Positions 19,295-53,610 of a stretch of 64,000 nt of DNA are shown piece after piece. Under the pieces are notes generated by a model, which was not told the DNA's origin, did no database searches, and saw only the letters and a program-made list of their open reading frames with translations. Each line of letters begins with the position of its first letter. The stretch's first letter is position 1. The DNA is from an uncultured Phycisphaerales bacterium (GTDB lineage: Bacteria; Planctomycetota; Phycisphaerae; Tepidisphaerales; Tepidisphaeraceae): positions 4,512,001 to 4,576,000 of the forward strand of contig CAVWLP010000002.1 of NCBI GenBank assembly GCA_963755915.1, given 5' to 3'. The position numbers and the translations under genes are program-made.

Positions 19295-19397
19295 GCCATA
19301 GATCTAAAGGCAGATGCACACGGATAAAGGGAATTGCTCTTTATCCGTGTGCATCTGATTTTTAATCTGACTTCGGCGAGCTCAGTCGAGGCGTGGC
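19295..19397. repeat. REP-like palindrome, family B, with a nested 24-nt insert
   Basis: Perfect 19-bp inverted repeat CAGATGCACACGGATAAAG / CTTTATCCGTGTGCATCTG. Outer arms GCCATAGAT / ATCTG^TGGC. Confidence 0.85.
19370..19393. mobile_element. 24-nt mini-element, copy 1
   Basis: ACTTCGGCGAGCTCAGTCGAGGCG, 23/24 identical to 52175-52198; interrupts a palindrome arm. Confidence 0.65.
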
Positions 19398-19424
19398 CAA
19401 TACTCTTCTGTCCGTGCTGCGCTT

Positions 19425-20338
19425 TTATTTTGCGGCGTTGCGGCGGCGGAGGAGAAGGCCCGCGGCGCCGATCGCCAGGACGGAGAAGGAAACCGGCTCC
19501 GGGACCGCGAGGACGACATTGGGCCGGCGGCGTAATCGGCGGCGATGTCGCTGGCGCTCTCCGCGTTATTGTAAATCCGGAACTCGTCGATGCTTCCGGA
19601 GGTGGCATTGTCGCCGGAGAAGGCGGAACGGCCGAGATAGGCGTTGGTGAAAGCGAAGTCGCTGAGCGGGTCGCCGGCGACGACGCTTTGGAGCCCGCCG
19701 GCACCGGCGGTTTCGTCGTAAAGGTAATAGCTGAGGTTACCGGAGCTATCGATGGTAACCGCGGAGAAGCAGGTATCTCCGTTGTCGAGATAGCCGCCGC
19801 CGAACGCGCCAATATTGGGGGTGGTGCTGAAGGCGTCGATTTCGGGGCCGGGGTTGTAGCCGTGGAGTCCCTGGACGATGTGGTTTCCACCGGTGTTATT
19901 TCCAGCTCCGGGCGTGCCTGCGGGTTGGGGAGCGGAAATGGTGTCCATCATGTATTCGCCGGCGACGGGTGGGTTGGCATCCGTAGCGTTGGAGAAGGAC
20001 CAGGCCTCGGTGTAGAAGCCGGAGCCGGTAAATGTGAACCACGTTTCGATGGTGACGGCGCCGCTGGTCGGCAGGATGCTGACGGGTAGGGAGAGATAAC
20101 CGCTTAGGTCGGTTTGTCCGGAAGTGTTTCCGGTGAAGTTGGGGTTGTTCAACTGGAGCTGCCCGCCAGAGACGGTCGCCGAGTTCATTAGCGTGCCGTT
20201 GGCGCCGCCGATGGAATCGGTGGCACCGTTGGTGAAGCTGTATTCATGGGTGAGATCCGCGTGAACCGGAGTGGCCGCGCAGAGCCCGACAAGCAAAAGG
20301 CCGCAACTGATTCCTCCCCGACGCATGTTCATTTTCAT
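19425..20338 (-). CDS. LamG/concanavalin-like PEP-CTERM exported protein (frameshift near 19520)
   Basis: Signal peptide; LTHEYSF...DSIGGANGTL; GSIDEFRIYN; C-terminal VPEPVSFSVLAIGAAGLLLRRR in the shifted frame. Confidence 0.85.
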
Positions 20339-20633
20339 CTCTTCCTCCAAAGGTTCCAACCGATCCGACTTACTTTCGACGTGAAAGAAACCCATTATGT
20401 CGTGAAGTGCGACAATGTCAACGAAATTCTTAAGGTTTTCTTTAGGTGTGAAAGAAAGTGTGGTTTTTGGTTTAAATTGGGAGGTATCGGCAAGACACGA
20501 AAAGCCCCGCCGGGGCAGGTTTGGTCTGGATAGTGTGATTGTGGAAAAAAGATTGAAACCGCGGATTTCGCGGATGGCGCGGATAAGAAATAGATTTTGT
20601 GCTCGTTGCGCCGTGGGCGTTTGCGAAAGGGAG

Positions 20634-30131: not shown

Positions 30132-32104
30132 GTAGAGTAGAGAACTGAACGACCCGATTGCCGCTCAGCTCTCCCTCTTCGAACCGGACGAGCGGGTTTC
30201 CCGCATCCGGCTCTCACGGTATTGTTCTTCTCAAGCATTCACGGTCGGAACAGGTCGCAGGCTGATGAGGCCCAGACGCTGCAACTGTTCGTACCAGCTC
30301 CTCGCTCCGCGCACACGGAACGGACGCTGGCTGCGACGTTTAAGGTGTCGTTCCAGTCGCTCCTGCACAAATCGGTTGATCTGACGGAACGCCTTGCGCG
30401 GATAGCCTTTGCCGAAGTAGTTGGCCCATCCTCTCAGGTGCTCGTTGATCTGTACGATCAACGCCGGGATGGGCACAAAGCCTGCTTCGGGTCCGGTCAT
30501 CTCCCGCAATTTGTCCCGCTCACGCTGCATCGACTTGCTCGAAGGACAGAGGTTCAGATAACGCCCCGGCCCGCCTTGCAGGCTCCGGTCGTACCGGAAC
30601 CTGTACCCGAGAAAGTTCAGACTTTCGCCCGGCTCTTTCAACTTCACCGTGCGGGTCTTGTCGGTGTTGATCGTCAGATCAAACCGGCCTTGCAGCGTGC
30701 GTTCCACGAACTGCTTGATCTGAGGGCCTATATACCTTGCCATGATGACAAAGTCGTCGGCGTACCGGATCAGCCGGGCGTTCGCCCAGCGATGCGGGCC
30801 ATCGGATCGGTGGAACAATTTATCAAACCAGTGCAGATATAGGTTGGCCAGCAGCGGCGAGATCACTCCGCCCTGCGGCGTTCCCTGTTTGCTCCGGGTG
30901 ACTTTCGGTGGATCGCCGGGCTTCTCGCCTTCTTCGACGATCACCGCCTTCAGCCACATCCGGATCAGCTTCAGCACGCTTCCGTCCGTGATCCGCTTCT
31001 GGACACACGCCATCAGTTTCTCATGGGGAATCGTGTCGAAGTACGACTGCAAATCCGCGTCATACACTTCCCTTCGGCCCTGCTGGAGGTTTTGCTTGAT
31101 CGCCTCCAGCGCATCGTGAGCCGAGCGACCGGGACGGAATCCATACGAACAGTCCAGGAAATCCGCCTCGAAGATCGGCTCGATGAGCAGCAGCACCGCC
31201 ATCTGCACCACGCGATCTCGGATCGTGGGGATGCCCAATGGACGCCGCTTGCCGTTGGCTTTGGGAATGTACACGCGCTTCACCGGCTGCGGGCGGTAGG
31301 TGCGGGTCTTGAGCGATTCTTCGATCTCGCTCAGGAATCCACTGACGCCGTGCTCGGAGTTTTGCACCTTCTCGATGCTCACCCCGTCCAAGCCGGGCGC
31401 CCCGCCGTTGGCGGACACCCGGTCCCACGCCGCTTCCAGAACATCGCGCCGGCAGATCCGGTCGTACAAGGTGTAAAACCGAAACCCCGGTTCCCGCTTG
31501 GCTTTGAGGTATAGCTTCTGTCTCAGAAGAAAGACTTTCCCCGGCAGACCCCTGGAGTTCACCCTCAGGTGCTCCGGCAAGTCTGTCGGATCATCCGTAC
31601 TGTCAGGTTGTCCCTGCAAGCGGGCCTCTCTTCTTCTTACTTCCGCTCGATACCGTCAGGGCTCCTTGGCTCGCGGCAGGCTTCGCCTCCGCTCACGGGC
31701 ATTACCCCGCTTCTCAGCTACTATGAGCCCATCCGACTCCCCACGCTTCCCGTCCCTTGGTTATGTCTTTCCAACGAGCCGCACAACGATGCGTGGGGTC
31801 TCTCAGTTCCCGATCTTGTCTGTCGGCACGCGCCGTCCCCATCGACCCCGAGGAGCCGGACGATTGCTCGCACCCGCTGCTTCATCGTCCGCGCCGGCTT
31901 GGCCCTCTCTGACGGGTTGGCCACTCCCATTGGCGTAACGAGGCTGGTTTGGGTTCGCTTAACGCTACGGCTCGCGCCTTCGCCTTCCGGGGCTTCGCGC
32001 GACCGATTGCTCCGTCGTCACGCCCGGGCGGCTACACGGCTAACGGGTCATTCCATGGTGAACTCCTTTCAGTTCACAAGACAAAACCGGTTTCACTGAC
32101 GCAC
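30132..32104 (-). mobile_element. Group II intron (complete)
   Basis: 5' GTGCG at 32104; domain V GAGCCGGATGCGGGAAACCCGCTCGTCCGGTTC; domain VI ending CTACTCTAC at 30132; encodes an RT. Excision restores CTCTG|CGTGAG. Confidence 0.95.
30231..31619 (-). CDS. ltrA: Group II intron reverse transcriptase/maturase (no apparent endonuclease domain)
   Basis: [42 protein letters not shown], domain X LRGWANYF. Confidence 0.95.
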
Positions 32105-51095: not shown

Positions 51096-51184
51096 AAGAT
51101 GAATTATAGTGCAACTTTCAATTCTTACGAAACTTGGGCGCACCCCGTTTGCACTTTCATGGCAATCTCTATAATCCCCACGCG

Positions 51185-52159
51185 ATGCCTCTCGCACTCG
51201 ACGCCCTTTCCCTTTACGTCCAGCCCCAACTCGACGCCGTCGAAAAGCTCTTCAACGAAGAGCTCACCAGCTCCGTCTCGTGCGTAAATTCCCTCGTTAA
51301 GCACGTCAGCCGCTTCCGCGGAAAAATGCTCCGCCCCATCCTCGTCCTCCTCGCCGGCAAGGCCAGCGGAACCCTCGACGACGCCCACATCGTCCTGGCC
51401 ACCGTCGTCGAAATGGTCCACATGGCCACTCTCATCCACGACGACGTTCTCGACGAAGCCGAGCTTCGCCGCAAAGGCGCCACCATCAACCATCTCCGCG
51501 GCAACGAAGCCGCCGTCCTGCTCGGCGACTATCTCATCAGCCACAGCTACCACCTCTGCTCCAGCCTCGATTCCCAGTTCGCCTCCCGCGTCATCGGCCG
51601 AACCACCAACCAGGTCTGCGAAGGCGAACTCCTCCAAATCCACCATCGCAACAACCTCGATCTGACGGAAGAAACCTACCTCCAGATCATCACCTGCAAA
51701 ACCGCCGTCCTGTGCGCCTCCTGCTGCCTGCTCGGCGCCACCTTCTCCGGCGCCGATGCCGCCCGCGTCGAAAACCTGCGCCAATTCGGCCTCTGCCTCG
51801 GCACCGCGTTTCAGATTCAGGACGACATCCTCGACATCGTCGGAAACGAATCCACCGTCGGCAAAACCCTCGGCATCGACGTCTTAAAAGGCAAGCTCAC
51901 GCTCCCCATCATCCATTTCCTGGCCAACGCCCCGCAGGAGCATCGCATCCTGCTTCAATCCCTGCTTCGCAGCCACGACGCCGACAAAGTCGAGCGAATC
52001 CGCAACCTCATCCTCCCCAGCCGTTCCGTCGGCTACGCCACCTCAAAAGCAAAAGCCCTGATCGCCCAGGCCCACGAGGCGATCGCCGCTCTCCCCGATT
52101 CGCCCGCCAAACAAATCCTCGGCACCCTGGCCGATTTCGTCATCAACCGGCCAATGTAA
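51185..52159 (+). CDS. Polyprenyl diphosphate synthase
   Basis: GKMLRP, LIHDDVLD, FQIQDDILD. Confidence 0.93.
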   Translation: MPLALDALSLYVQPQLDAVEKLFNEELTSSVSCVNSLVKHVSRFRGKMLRPILVLLAGKASGTLDDAHIVLATVVEMVHMATLIHDDVLDEAELRRKGATINHLRGNEAAVLLGDYLISHSYHLCSSLDSQFASRVIGRTTNQVCEGELLQIHHRNNLDLTEETYLQIITCKTAVLCASCCLLGATFSGADAARVENLRQFGLCLGTAFQIQDDILDIVGNESTVGKTLGIDVLKGKLTLPIIHFLANAPQEHRILLQSLLRSHDADKVERIRNLILPSRSVGYATSKAKALIAQAHEAIAALPDSPAKQILGTLADFVINRPM

Positions 52160-52174
52160 AAACAATGCCGCCGG

Positions 52175-52198
52175 ACTTCGGCGAGCTCAGTCGAGCCG
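52175..52198. mobile_element. 24-nt mini-element, copy 2
   Basis: ACTTCGGCGAGCTCAGTCGAGCCG. Removing it restores the perfect inverted repeat CCGCCGGT-ATCCTC-ACCGGCGG. Confidence 0.68.
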
Positions 52199-52330
52199 TA
52201 TCCTCACCGGCGGAATCTTTTCACGACACCGCGCCACTTTTAAAGTTTGTTGAAACTTGCCAATTTTCCTTGCATTTTCGGCTTAAGGTACGGATTATTT
52301 GTCCCGCATCTCTGCTCAGGAATGGGAACG

Positions 52331-53610
52331 ATGGCGGCAACGGCACAGAAATTCTCCTGCGGAGGCTGCGGGAACGAGTTGACCTGGAAACAGGAATTCG
52401 TCGGCCGAAAATCAAATGCAAATCCTGCGGACATCCCATGGCAATTCCGCCCTATCCCAACGGGGCGGAGCCGGAGCTTGAGCCCGAACCGCAGGCCTCG
52501 GATGATGATCTCTATGCCCTCGCCGACGACGCACGAAACGCCGCCGCGAATATTGAACCGACGATCGTCGATCCCACCGAATTCCAGCAGGCGGTCCCTG
52601 CCGCGGCCGTCGCCGCGGTAGCGCCGGGAGCTTCGAAATCGGGAATCCCCCTCGCCTATCGCCGCGGGCCCACCGCCGCCGAAAAAAAACGCGACGCCGA
52701 CGCCAGTCAGATCGACGAAAATCGCGACATCAAGGTCCCCATCGCGCTGCTTGCCGCCGGGGCAATTCTTTACGTCAGCTACTACGCAATCCACTACGGC
52801 CTCGGGCTGGGGCCGTTGATCGCCATCACCATCGGCCTGCTCATCATGACCGTCTTCGAGACGATCCTGCTCTTCGCCTTCGGCCTGGCCATTGCCGGTC
52901 CGCTGAGCGTGAATTTCGGCGGAATCTGGACCGCCCTTCTGAAGTTCGCGGCCATCGCACTCTTCTGCGACGGCGTCACCACCTGGGTCGACGGAATGTT
53001 CTCAACCTGGACCGGCGGCGTCGGCGGTGGCGGGATCTTCGGCTTCGGCGTCATCGGACTCCCCATCGCCGCGGGCGTTTACTGGGTCACCATGACATAT
53101 CTCTTCTCCATGGACCCCGGCGACGCCTGGATCGTCGTCATCATCCTCGCCGTCTTCTATCGCATCATGAGCGTCGTCCTCATCATCCTGGTTCTGAAGC
53201 TCGTCCTCAGCTTCGGCGGCGTCGCAGCCGCCAACATCCCCCTGCCAACCTTCGGCGGCAGCGGCGGCGTCTCCGTCAATCCGGTCATCGACACCGTCAA
53301 CCAGGCCAAGGCCCAGAACCTCCTGCACGAGGCCCGCAAATACGCCGACACGAACGGCCTCTCTGCCTACAAATCTGCCATTGAAGGCTGGTACAAAGCC
53401 GGCGCGAAAAATGTCTGGTTCGAAACCGACCGCGACATCAACGGCAAAGGCAACGCCTTCCGCATGATTATCGAAATGCCCAGCGACTCCACCTCCCGCG
53501 CCAATTGCTACGCCGTTCTCAAACAATATTACAGCGACATGGGCTGGTCACCGTTAGCCCAGGGCTTGCAGGACACGGGCGATCCATATCTGCTCGTTCC
53601 GCTGCCGTAG
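52331..53610 (+). CDS. Zinc-ribbon plus multi-TM hypothetical protein (frameshift near 52410)
   Basis: FSCGGCG...KCKSCG; acidic DDDLYAL linker; TM block. Confidence 0.72.

Follow-up and report, generated by a model that had tools for sequence, protein, structure and literature searches.

A candidate mobile hairpin of 24 nucleotides inserted as a discrete module into unrelated repeats and genes in assemblies from many bacterial phyla

In this study, we analyzed a 64,000-nt stretch of DNA (G000:C2:4512001-4576000, called the window below) from the genome assembly of an uncultured Phycisphaerales soil bacterium (G000; 6.6-Mb, 59% G+C, three contigs), and a 24-nt sequence within it (the 24-mer, master sequence ACTTCGGCGAGCTCAGTCGAGCCG) that an examination of the letters alone, here the sequence-only reading, had interpreted as an ultra-short mobile element. 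Comparison of its copies in this and other genomes revealed discrete ends, unrelated hosts, empty sites, nesting, a target consensus, covariation in its stem and patchy bursts of copies in multiple phyla. We consider it very probable that the 24-mer is a discrete, gene-less module inserted independently of its hosts, and on that point the sequence-only reading has held up, based on exact ends, at least 13 unrelated host contexts, empty paralogues and orthologous alleles, and nesting. The complete statement, in which the 24-mer is non-autonomous mobile DNA moved as a unit by a protein acting in trans, is the one that we favor on balance, with less assurance. Few mobile DNA elements as small would then have been seen. 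Its host range is unusually wide and its anatomy well defined.

The window holds two matches to the 24-mer at ≤3 mismatches, compared with 0.00 expected (100 shuffles). At site 1 an exact match (52175..52198, + strand) stands directly after the last G of the 5' arm GCCGCCGG of a host hairpin of family A (52167..52174, + strand) and is followed by the remainder of that hairpin, which comprises T, the loop ATCCTC and the 3' arm ACCGGCGG (52199..52213, + strand), the 24-mer thus splitting GCCGCCGG^T-ATCCTC-ACCGGCGG. Excision in silico restores the perfect inverted repeat that the sequence-only reading had described, with an 8-bp stem and a 6-nt loop (-16.5 kcal/mol, RNA parameters). With the insert in place the outer 7-bp stem persists and the insert folds its own small hairpin (-24.3 kcal/mol, RNA parameters). 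The host hairpin begins 8 nt, and the 24-mer 15 nt, past the stop of a polyprenyl synthetase gene (51134-52159). When 11 nt of each flank were joined and sought elsewhere in the genome at ≤2 mismatches of 22, site 1 had 12 empty paralogues and site 2 had none.

At site 2 (19370..19393, + strand) alignment to the master sequence gives 23/24 identities, the difference being C22>G, a derived substitution that costs the stem one base pair; in the same-genus genome G001 the orthologous site is occupied and the stem GCCG is intact. This copy had been thought to interrupt an unrelated palindrome as well, which proved incorrect: the palindrome (19311-19357, with 19-nt arms at 19311-19329 and 19339-19357) is whole and the 24-mer stands 13 nt further downstream. 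Palindrome and ATCTG-rich tail (19358-19369) together form a neighboring host repeat (19311..19369, + strand) that is multi-copy in the genus. The 24-mer itself stands between ...CATCTGATTTTTAATCTG and TGGCCAAT, the latter being the right flank of host family C (19394..19401, + strand), for which empty ATCTG^TGGC(C/A)A paralogues exist in the genome; the composite is also found in other assemblies, at loci L008 and L110. On one side of this intergenic location is a class-I aldolase gene, and on the other a LamG-type gene convergent with it. As had been noted from the letters, a G^T step is found at both sites with no target duplication beyond a 1-nt ambiguity, which arises because the flanking G is also the last G of the 24-mer, and the 24-mer is 8 codons long, reading DFGELSRA once the preceding G is counted in. 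Separately, the LamG-type gene (window ~19400-20395, - strand) seems frameshifted relative to its G001 orthologue by a 1-nt gap near window 19525, which puts its PEP-CTERM-like tail (VPEP...LLLRRR) out of frame, the frame continuing to a TGA within the reverse-complement 24-mer; this frameshift could be a homopolymer assembly error.

Throughout G000 the core pattern of the 24-mer was found at 84 places, 76 of them with ≤1 mismatch in the fixed positions, and twenty-one copies are identical. The unrelated host contexts comprise families A (8 copies), B (19), C (5), D (22), E (4), F (8), H (2) and N (3), and the single cases G, J, K and L; nine further copies lie outside the named families, about five of which resemble chance matches. 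The host repeats are themselves small, consisting of GC-rich hairpins (A, B and H), repeats like repetitive extragenic palindromic (REP) sequences (D) and heptamer arrays (E, F and J). The genome search with excision in silico that the sequence-only reading had suggested showed that 64 of the 84 copies have one or more empty paralogues, for which an arithmetic estimate of the chance expectation is about 0.002 per query. By regular expression, 20 members of family A are empty, six hold the 24-mer, two hold the 24-mer with a nested 30-nt element (the 30-mer, described below) and one holds an unrelated 11-nt insert, and the empty and filled members number 34 versus 11 in family B, 46 versus 1 in H and 12 versus 1 in L. 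Family C has ~10 empty paralogues among 15 motif matches, and its reversed-motif control had one match. A crude gene caller placed 25 of the 84 copies in coding sequence, many of these calls being spurious extensions of open reading frames, including that at site 1, and they serve only for rough counts of copy orientation.

The clearest example in this genome is a series of three states in tandem paralogues of a TPR/GT41 glycosyltransferase, of which one is naked, one holds an empty family-B hairpin and one holds the family-B hairpin with the 24-mer. The comparison extends over about 210 nt of coding sequence at 85% identity, and the hairpin with the 24-mer is in frame within an intact 896-aa open reading frame.

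Several observations concern the host repeats in their own right. Members of the REP-like family D have a 5' GTAG and consist of CCCCGTGTAGC, then a stem around a CTTG loop (e.g., C2:1780813 and C2:3689598), in which three inner stem pairs covary (GTG/CAC, CCG/CGG, GGG/CCC and GAG/CTC); by regular expression 32 copies are empty and about 20 hold the 24-mer or a sister hairpin. The heptamer tandem arrays of families E, F and J (CGCAGAG, GGCAATC/GGCATTC and GCGAGTT) are frequent between genes and act as insertion hosts, as short tandemly repeated repetitive (STRR) arrays do for the small dispersed repeats of cyanobacteria. Inverted doublets of hairpin A with the 24-mer also occur (G000:C2:858094-858196, and in G006 and G001), spaced 43-80 nt start to start in a layout like that of REPINs.

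The anatomy of the 24-mer is a 5' tail, ACTT, followed by a 4-bp stem (CGGC/GCCG) that encloses the 12-nt loop GAGCTCAGTCGA. In the 76 well-matched copies of G000, positions 1-4 (ACTT), 9-12 (GAGC) and 16-20 (GTCGA) are nearly invariant and positions 13-15 vary, such that nine of the 12 loop positions are nearly fixed. The stem positions 7, 8, 21 and 22 change pairwise in the same copies: pair 8-21 is C-G in 35 and T-A in 40, with one intermediate, and pair 7-22 is G-C in 64, A-T in six and T-A in one. Among single-step stem variants from other phyla, G.T mismatches on the top strand outnumber A.C mismatches by 31 to 5, which indicates that the top strand is the one whose fold matters. An alternative stem, 11-14 with 19-22, was rejected on account of 39 C.A mismatches. 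The ends (ACTT... and ...GCCG) form no inverted repeat and no target-site duplication was found, which sets the 24-mer apart from miniature inverted-repeat transposable elements, whose terminal inverted repeats and target-site duplications derive from DDE transposons.

The hairpin plan (a 4-bp stem with a GAGC-N3-GTCGA loop) occurs 270 times, compared with once for a reversed-loop control; its tail is ACTT in 60 of these and CCTG in 203. The CCTG form, a 24-nt sister hairpin identical to the 24-mer at 20 of 24 positions, is the unit of tandem arrays of 2-12 units, of which 28 have at least three units by exact match. These arrays are in frame in the N-terminal linker of istA in an IS21-family element (istA/istB, about 2.8 kb; G000:C2:2300-5400, locus L121), where they read as GSTVLAAG repeats; this active element has ~30 copies that are >99.8% identical, none of them in the window.

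The site of insertion is as well defined as the ends. Among the matches listed, 122 of 123 copies are directly preceded by G; the base that follows is C (55 copies), T (49), A (12) or G (seven). The 114 unique sites gave a target logo with C at -3 (58%), R at -2 (81%), G at -1 (99%), Y at +1 (84%) and G at +2 (44%), i.e., a consensus of C-R-G^Y-G without duplication. The sequence-only reading had the 24-mer inserting into palindromes, of which the preference stands and the requirement does not. Sites in other phyla lay within 3 nt of a hairpin loop in 49 of 117 cases, compared with 189 of 695 matched C-R-G^Y controls (odds ratio 1.9, p = 0.002), and 55 of 84 sites in G000 lie within that distance of a loop; hairpins are thus modestly favored and are not needed. 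Ragged ends, a lack of empty sites and indifference to palindromes, which that reading had named as signs against itself, were each looked for, and the reverse was found in all three respects.

The 24-mer is also nested with itself and with a second mini-element, the 30-mer. Copies of the 24-mer were found within the loop of the 30-mer, and conversely 10 of the 24 copies of the 30-mer lie within the loop of a reverse-complement 24-mer. Triple-nested inserts of 54 nt, in which a 24-mer holds a 30-mer, are present in families A, B and F. Insertions of the 24-mer into itself were identified in other assemblies (L006, L020, L026, L035 and others) at G7^C8, G11^C12 and G16^T17. Like the 24-mer, the 30-mer is preceded by G, ends in G and begins NCTTCG; only one of five genomes with bursts of the 24-mer in various phyla (below) contains it, so common machinery for the two elements is not supported. 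As an observation on the 30-mer itself, its 24 places in G000 (e.g., C2:1880861 and C2:4296514) have the form Y-CTTCG-NNN-CTGAGGCTCAG-NNN-CGAAG-R-G, in which the two internal triplets repeat each other directly and vary in concert (ACC..ACC or GCT..GCT), a pattern for which a hairpin does not account.

Insertions that are read through in protein-coding genes, for which the sequence-only reading had suggested a search, were found as well. Ten in-frame copies, checked against Pfam, lie in long open reading frames with real domains, three in sense and seven in antisense orientation, and translate as DFGELSRA, GSTELAEV or RLSSPKS; the genes include those for penicillin amidase, photolyase and AddB. 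The photolyase of Ca. Amarolinea provides the empty orthologous alleles that had been called for. It holds GSTELAEV, and its three closest homologues gapped at the insert (P0001, P0002 and P0004, 92-94% identical) are without exactly those eight residues, as are seven more distant homologues. This pattern indicates that the empty form is ancestral and that the insertion took place recently. In a further homologue, P0003 (87%), from a relative of Ca. Amarolinea, the insert is present and is split after GST by a 23-residue nested insert.

A scan across genomes, with one genome per species and at least 120 loci, revealed the 24-mer in at least 92 assemblies (counted by accession prefix) with about 16 phylum-level labels among the matches listed. 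The labels are Planctomycetota, Verrucomicrobiota/Lentisphaerae, Chloroflexota, Desulfobacterota, Bdellovibrionota, Latescibacterota, Nitrospinota, Nitrospirota, Acidobacteriota, Gemmatimonadota, Bacteroidota/Chlorobi, Gammaproteobacteria, Tectomicrobia, Sumerlaeota and Methylomirabilota, and one contig is archaeal; none of the 120 loci listed has a cyanobacterium label. The flanks of the copies in different assemblies are mutually unrelated and the ends exact, and 22 viral contigs carry the 24-mer. The archaeal case (L082) is a 4-kb contig labeled Promethearchaeota archaeon, an Asgard bin, with one copy in frame (GSTELAEV) in an open reading frame for a membrane protein, and represents either presence in a second domain or a binning error.

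The distribution is patchy. Within the genus, copies per genome range from 0 to 81. G001 is counted with 81 and G000 with 57, compared with one in the close relative G007 and none in G003; this tally and that of Y1_Tnp genes below include genome G014, which is flagged as unpublished, and no claim depends on it alone. A search of 12 genomes belonging to other families of the class found no copy, and in an even sample of 300 further genomes from the phylum only eight carry the 24-mer, with 1-4 copies each. Bursts were identified in five genomes reached via the loci of the cross-genome scan: Ca. Amarolinea (Chloroflexota) with 50 copies, a member of the Pirellulales with 99 and one of the Planctomycetaceae with 115 (both Planctomycetota), a member of the Terriglobia (Acidobacteriota) with 51 and a 'delta proteobacterium' with 64. 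A reversed-pattern control had no match in any genome searched.

Based on these findings, we propose that the 24-mer is moved or copied in one piece and is inserted 3' of G at C-R-G^Y-G without duplication, into hairpin apexes more than expected, and into heptamer arrays, its own copies and coding DNA, where it is read through as eight codons. The active form may be single-stranded, since the structural constraint falls on the top strand and a double-stranded circle of 24 nt is implausible. The tail and loop would be recognized by a sequence-specific protein that is supplied in trans and may cut after G at both ends (C-R-G^ in the flank and ...C-C-G^ in the element) and rejoin at C-R-G^Y. Spread between phyla would be horizontal, potentially with phages and insertion sequences as carriers. 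A bolder version, which we regard as doubtful, is that the 24-mer parasitizes a conserved enzyme of its host with the ability to cut and rejoin single-stranded DNA after C-N-G. Instead of a transposase, this enzyme would be a nuclease, topoisomerase or recombinase with a housekeeping role.

A number of results weigh against movement of the 24-mer as a unit by a protein in trans. When the open reading frames of the 120 listed loci were clustered, no recurrent family was found beside the copies, the top clusters being an ABC ATPase (the best, at eight of those 120 loci), two-component proteins and TPR proteins. The copies of the window show no insertion polymorphism: the closest relative likewise carries the 24-mer at site 2, and at site 1 it has a wholly different repeat filling of 185 nt, so that the host hairpin and the 24-mer may have come together. 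Portions of the site 1 stretch are contained in twenty public runs from soil, peat and litter; among metagenome contigs from four runs, with cover too fragmentary to weigh either way, one spans the occupied site and none has an empty form. The position of the insert is identical in all filled members of a host family, and many copies could therefore be the product of composite amplification or gene conversion. An alternative pairing of positions 3-8 with 16-21 is still compatible with the copies, via wobbles only, and the modest enrichment at hairpin apexes could partly mirror where inserts are tolerated. Finally, the taxon labels come from the depositors of metagenome-assembled genomes, which make up most of the assemblies, and binning errors may have made single labels wrong.

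The mover suggested by the sequence-only reading was a Y1/HUH transposase (IS200/IS605 TnpA or RAYT) acting on single-stranded DNA, with the 24-mer as a mini-REP or palindrome-associated transposable element (PATE). The build of the 24-mer, with a conserved 4-nt tail and then a hairpin, is REP-like, and insertion 3' of a short motif (C-R-G) without duplication, a structural constraint on one strand and sites frequently in loops would all suit such an enzyme, as would the presence of Y1_Tnp genes in G000 (two) and in all five burst genomes (4-6 each). However, these genes do not track the 24-mer. Of 31 relatives, 27 have such genes, with copy number making no difference (G003 has six matches and G018 has 12, both with no copies, and G011 has 18 copies and one 25-bit match), and none of 14 Y1 loci has an adjoining 24-mer: the 2.5 kb or so around each of 12 strong Y1 genes in the burst genomes held no copy, nor did roughly 1.5 kb either side of the two in G000. 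The single TnpA located 1.4 kb from a copy is part of an IscB/TnpA element with a housekeeping gene in between. In addition, the 24-mer has one hairpin rather than two subterminal ones, and the complete 7.7-Mb chromosome of G334, with 64 copies (39+/25-), showed no strand bias between half-circles, such as would arise where the lagging-strand template is the target (permutation p about 0.6), in a test of one genome by the best half-circle contrast with the origin not mapped; the GC skew of G000 is weak and noisy and does not place its origin. We therefore consider this mover unlikely. G000 has a RAYT-like Y1 transposase gene of 247 aa (G000:C3:1125058-1125801; L138 1432-2175) that is flanked on both sides by a hairpin repeat of its own (GGGGACGCAGCTAG...CTAGCTGCGTCCCC), unrelated to the 24-mer.

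Another explanation is that the 24-mer is a passenger, not mobile by itself but captured once by a few host repeats, spread along with them and by gene conversion between family members, and carried to other phyla only inside transferred DNA. The fixed insert position, the difference of the site 1 orthologue by a whole composite and the inverted doublets described above are what it predicts, and nearly all members of family D with the GTG/CAC outer stem share the loop variant TGT. We nonetheless find it quite improbable, since it leaves the number of unrelated host families here, the unrelated flanks in so many assemblies and the identity of the ends throughout unaccounted for, as well as the single-copy coding sites whose close orthologues are empty and the self-insertions. 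Several stem variants also occur within family B (12 GT/AC, six GC/GC and one TC/GA), and unrelated sites have a common target consensus.

Comparably improbable is that the 24-mer is a selected RNA or protein-binding hairpin, with a function in, e.g., stability, termination or binding, whose spread is secondary. Covariation of the stem, the near-invariant loop and tail, and wobbles of the G.U type on one strand are features to be expected of such a module; site 1 lies directly past a gene, and 21 of 30 copies in co-directional contexts are co-oriented with the genes, based on the crude gene calls. However, a scan of window 52000-52400, i.e., site 1 only, against Rfam 15 gave chance-level matches alone (E 0.5-5, far under the gathering scores), the coding copies are in both orientations, the distribution within the phylum and genus is sparse and uneven, and a function would leave the precise insertions unexplained.

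Least probable is an RNA intermediate inserted by a reverse transcriptase, through templated patching of breaks or through reverse splicing and cDNA synthesis, since the RNA-like tolerance of wobbles, the tandem arrays of the sister unit and the 15 RVT_1 matches of G000, including 12 identical 474-aa reverse transcriptase open reading frames, stand against a majority of antisense coding inserts (7/10), which indicates that host mRNA is not the target, and against ends at which no poly-A or other mark of a retro-element was seen. One of the 12 identical reading frames lies in the window (30597-31268, - strand; RVT_1 at 115 bits), and they are probably a multi-copy group II intron.

Among described systems, the closest kind is that of the small dispersed repeats (SDR4-6, and especially SDR5) of Nostoc and relatives in the Nostocaceae. 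Their original description is reportedly that of Elhai et al. 2008, Genome Res 18:1484. In the passages that treat them, SDRs are gene-less modules of about 21-27 nt that are regarded as possibly mobile (PMC5861425, PMC4390886, PMC13756078, PMC2884548, PMC3116915), and SDR5 is placed precisely between the third and fourth base of HIP1 (GCG^ATCGC), also after G (PMC4390886). One of these accounts gives the mover and function of SDRs as unknown (PMC13756078), and according to the statements of citing papers SDRs are not found outside the Nostocaceae. The 24-mer resembles SDRs, by description rather than by sequence, in its size of 24 nt, its precise short target and its nesting in hairpin repeats, heptamer arrays, the 30-mer and itself, and differs from them in the number of phylum labels among its assemblies. 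To our knowledge, a looser target (C-R-G^Y), a covarying hairpin and in-frame copies in genes are not features of SDRs.

Other systems share fewer features with the 24-mer. REPs consist of GTAG and a hairpin, which is a long imperfect palindrome, are lineage-specific and mostly vertical in descent, and are tied to the single-copy RAYT that they flank, whereas IS200/IS605 elements have subterminal hairpins at both ends. One account describes REPs and REPINs as short intergenic hairpin repeats with a conserved tetranucleotide beside the hairpin, which are non-autonomous and thought to move in single-stranded form (PMC3116915). The 24-mer is likewise a non-autonomous hairpin repeat with a conserved tetranucleotide; unlike REPs, it has a stem of only 4 bp, no linked Y1 gene and a cross-phylum distribution, and it inserts into REP-like repeats (family D, GTAG). 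Rickettsia palindromic elements, which are about 100-150 nt long and restricted to Rickettsia, also lie in frame in protein genes and are translated, but the 24-mer is far shorter and found in many phyla. The G+C clusters of yeast mitochondria are small (30-60 nt), GC-rich, gene-less hairpins with short G-rich targets, whose mover is unknown; the 24-mer is likewise small, gene-less and nested, but the clusters are organellar, eukaryotic and of other sequence. No description of this sequence, or of such a cross-phylum element, was found in the literature within a search that had most subscription journals and supplements outside it.

If 24 nt can move on their own signal, the 24-mer would, one cyanobacterial family aside, lower the known size limit of mobile DNA and would point to an enzyme activity common to very distant bacteria. 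Should a host enzyme be what it parasitizes, the 24-mer could establish itself in almost any bacterial phylum that it reached, and would be the smallest self-propagating DNA known and, together with the 30-mer, an undescribed class of mobile DNA. In the genomes that carry it, the 24-mer remodels terminator-like hairpins and REP-like repeats, adds 8-residue loops to photolyase, AddB, penicillin amidase and, in this genome, GT41 glycosyltransferase, and seeds variable tandem arrays within an active IS21 transposase gene. The exact ends, C-R-G^Y target, covarying stem and list of burst genomes make the mover of very small repeats testable.
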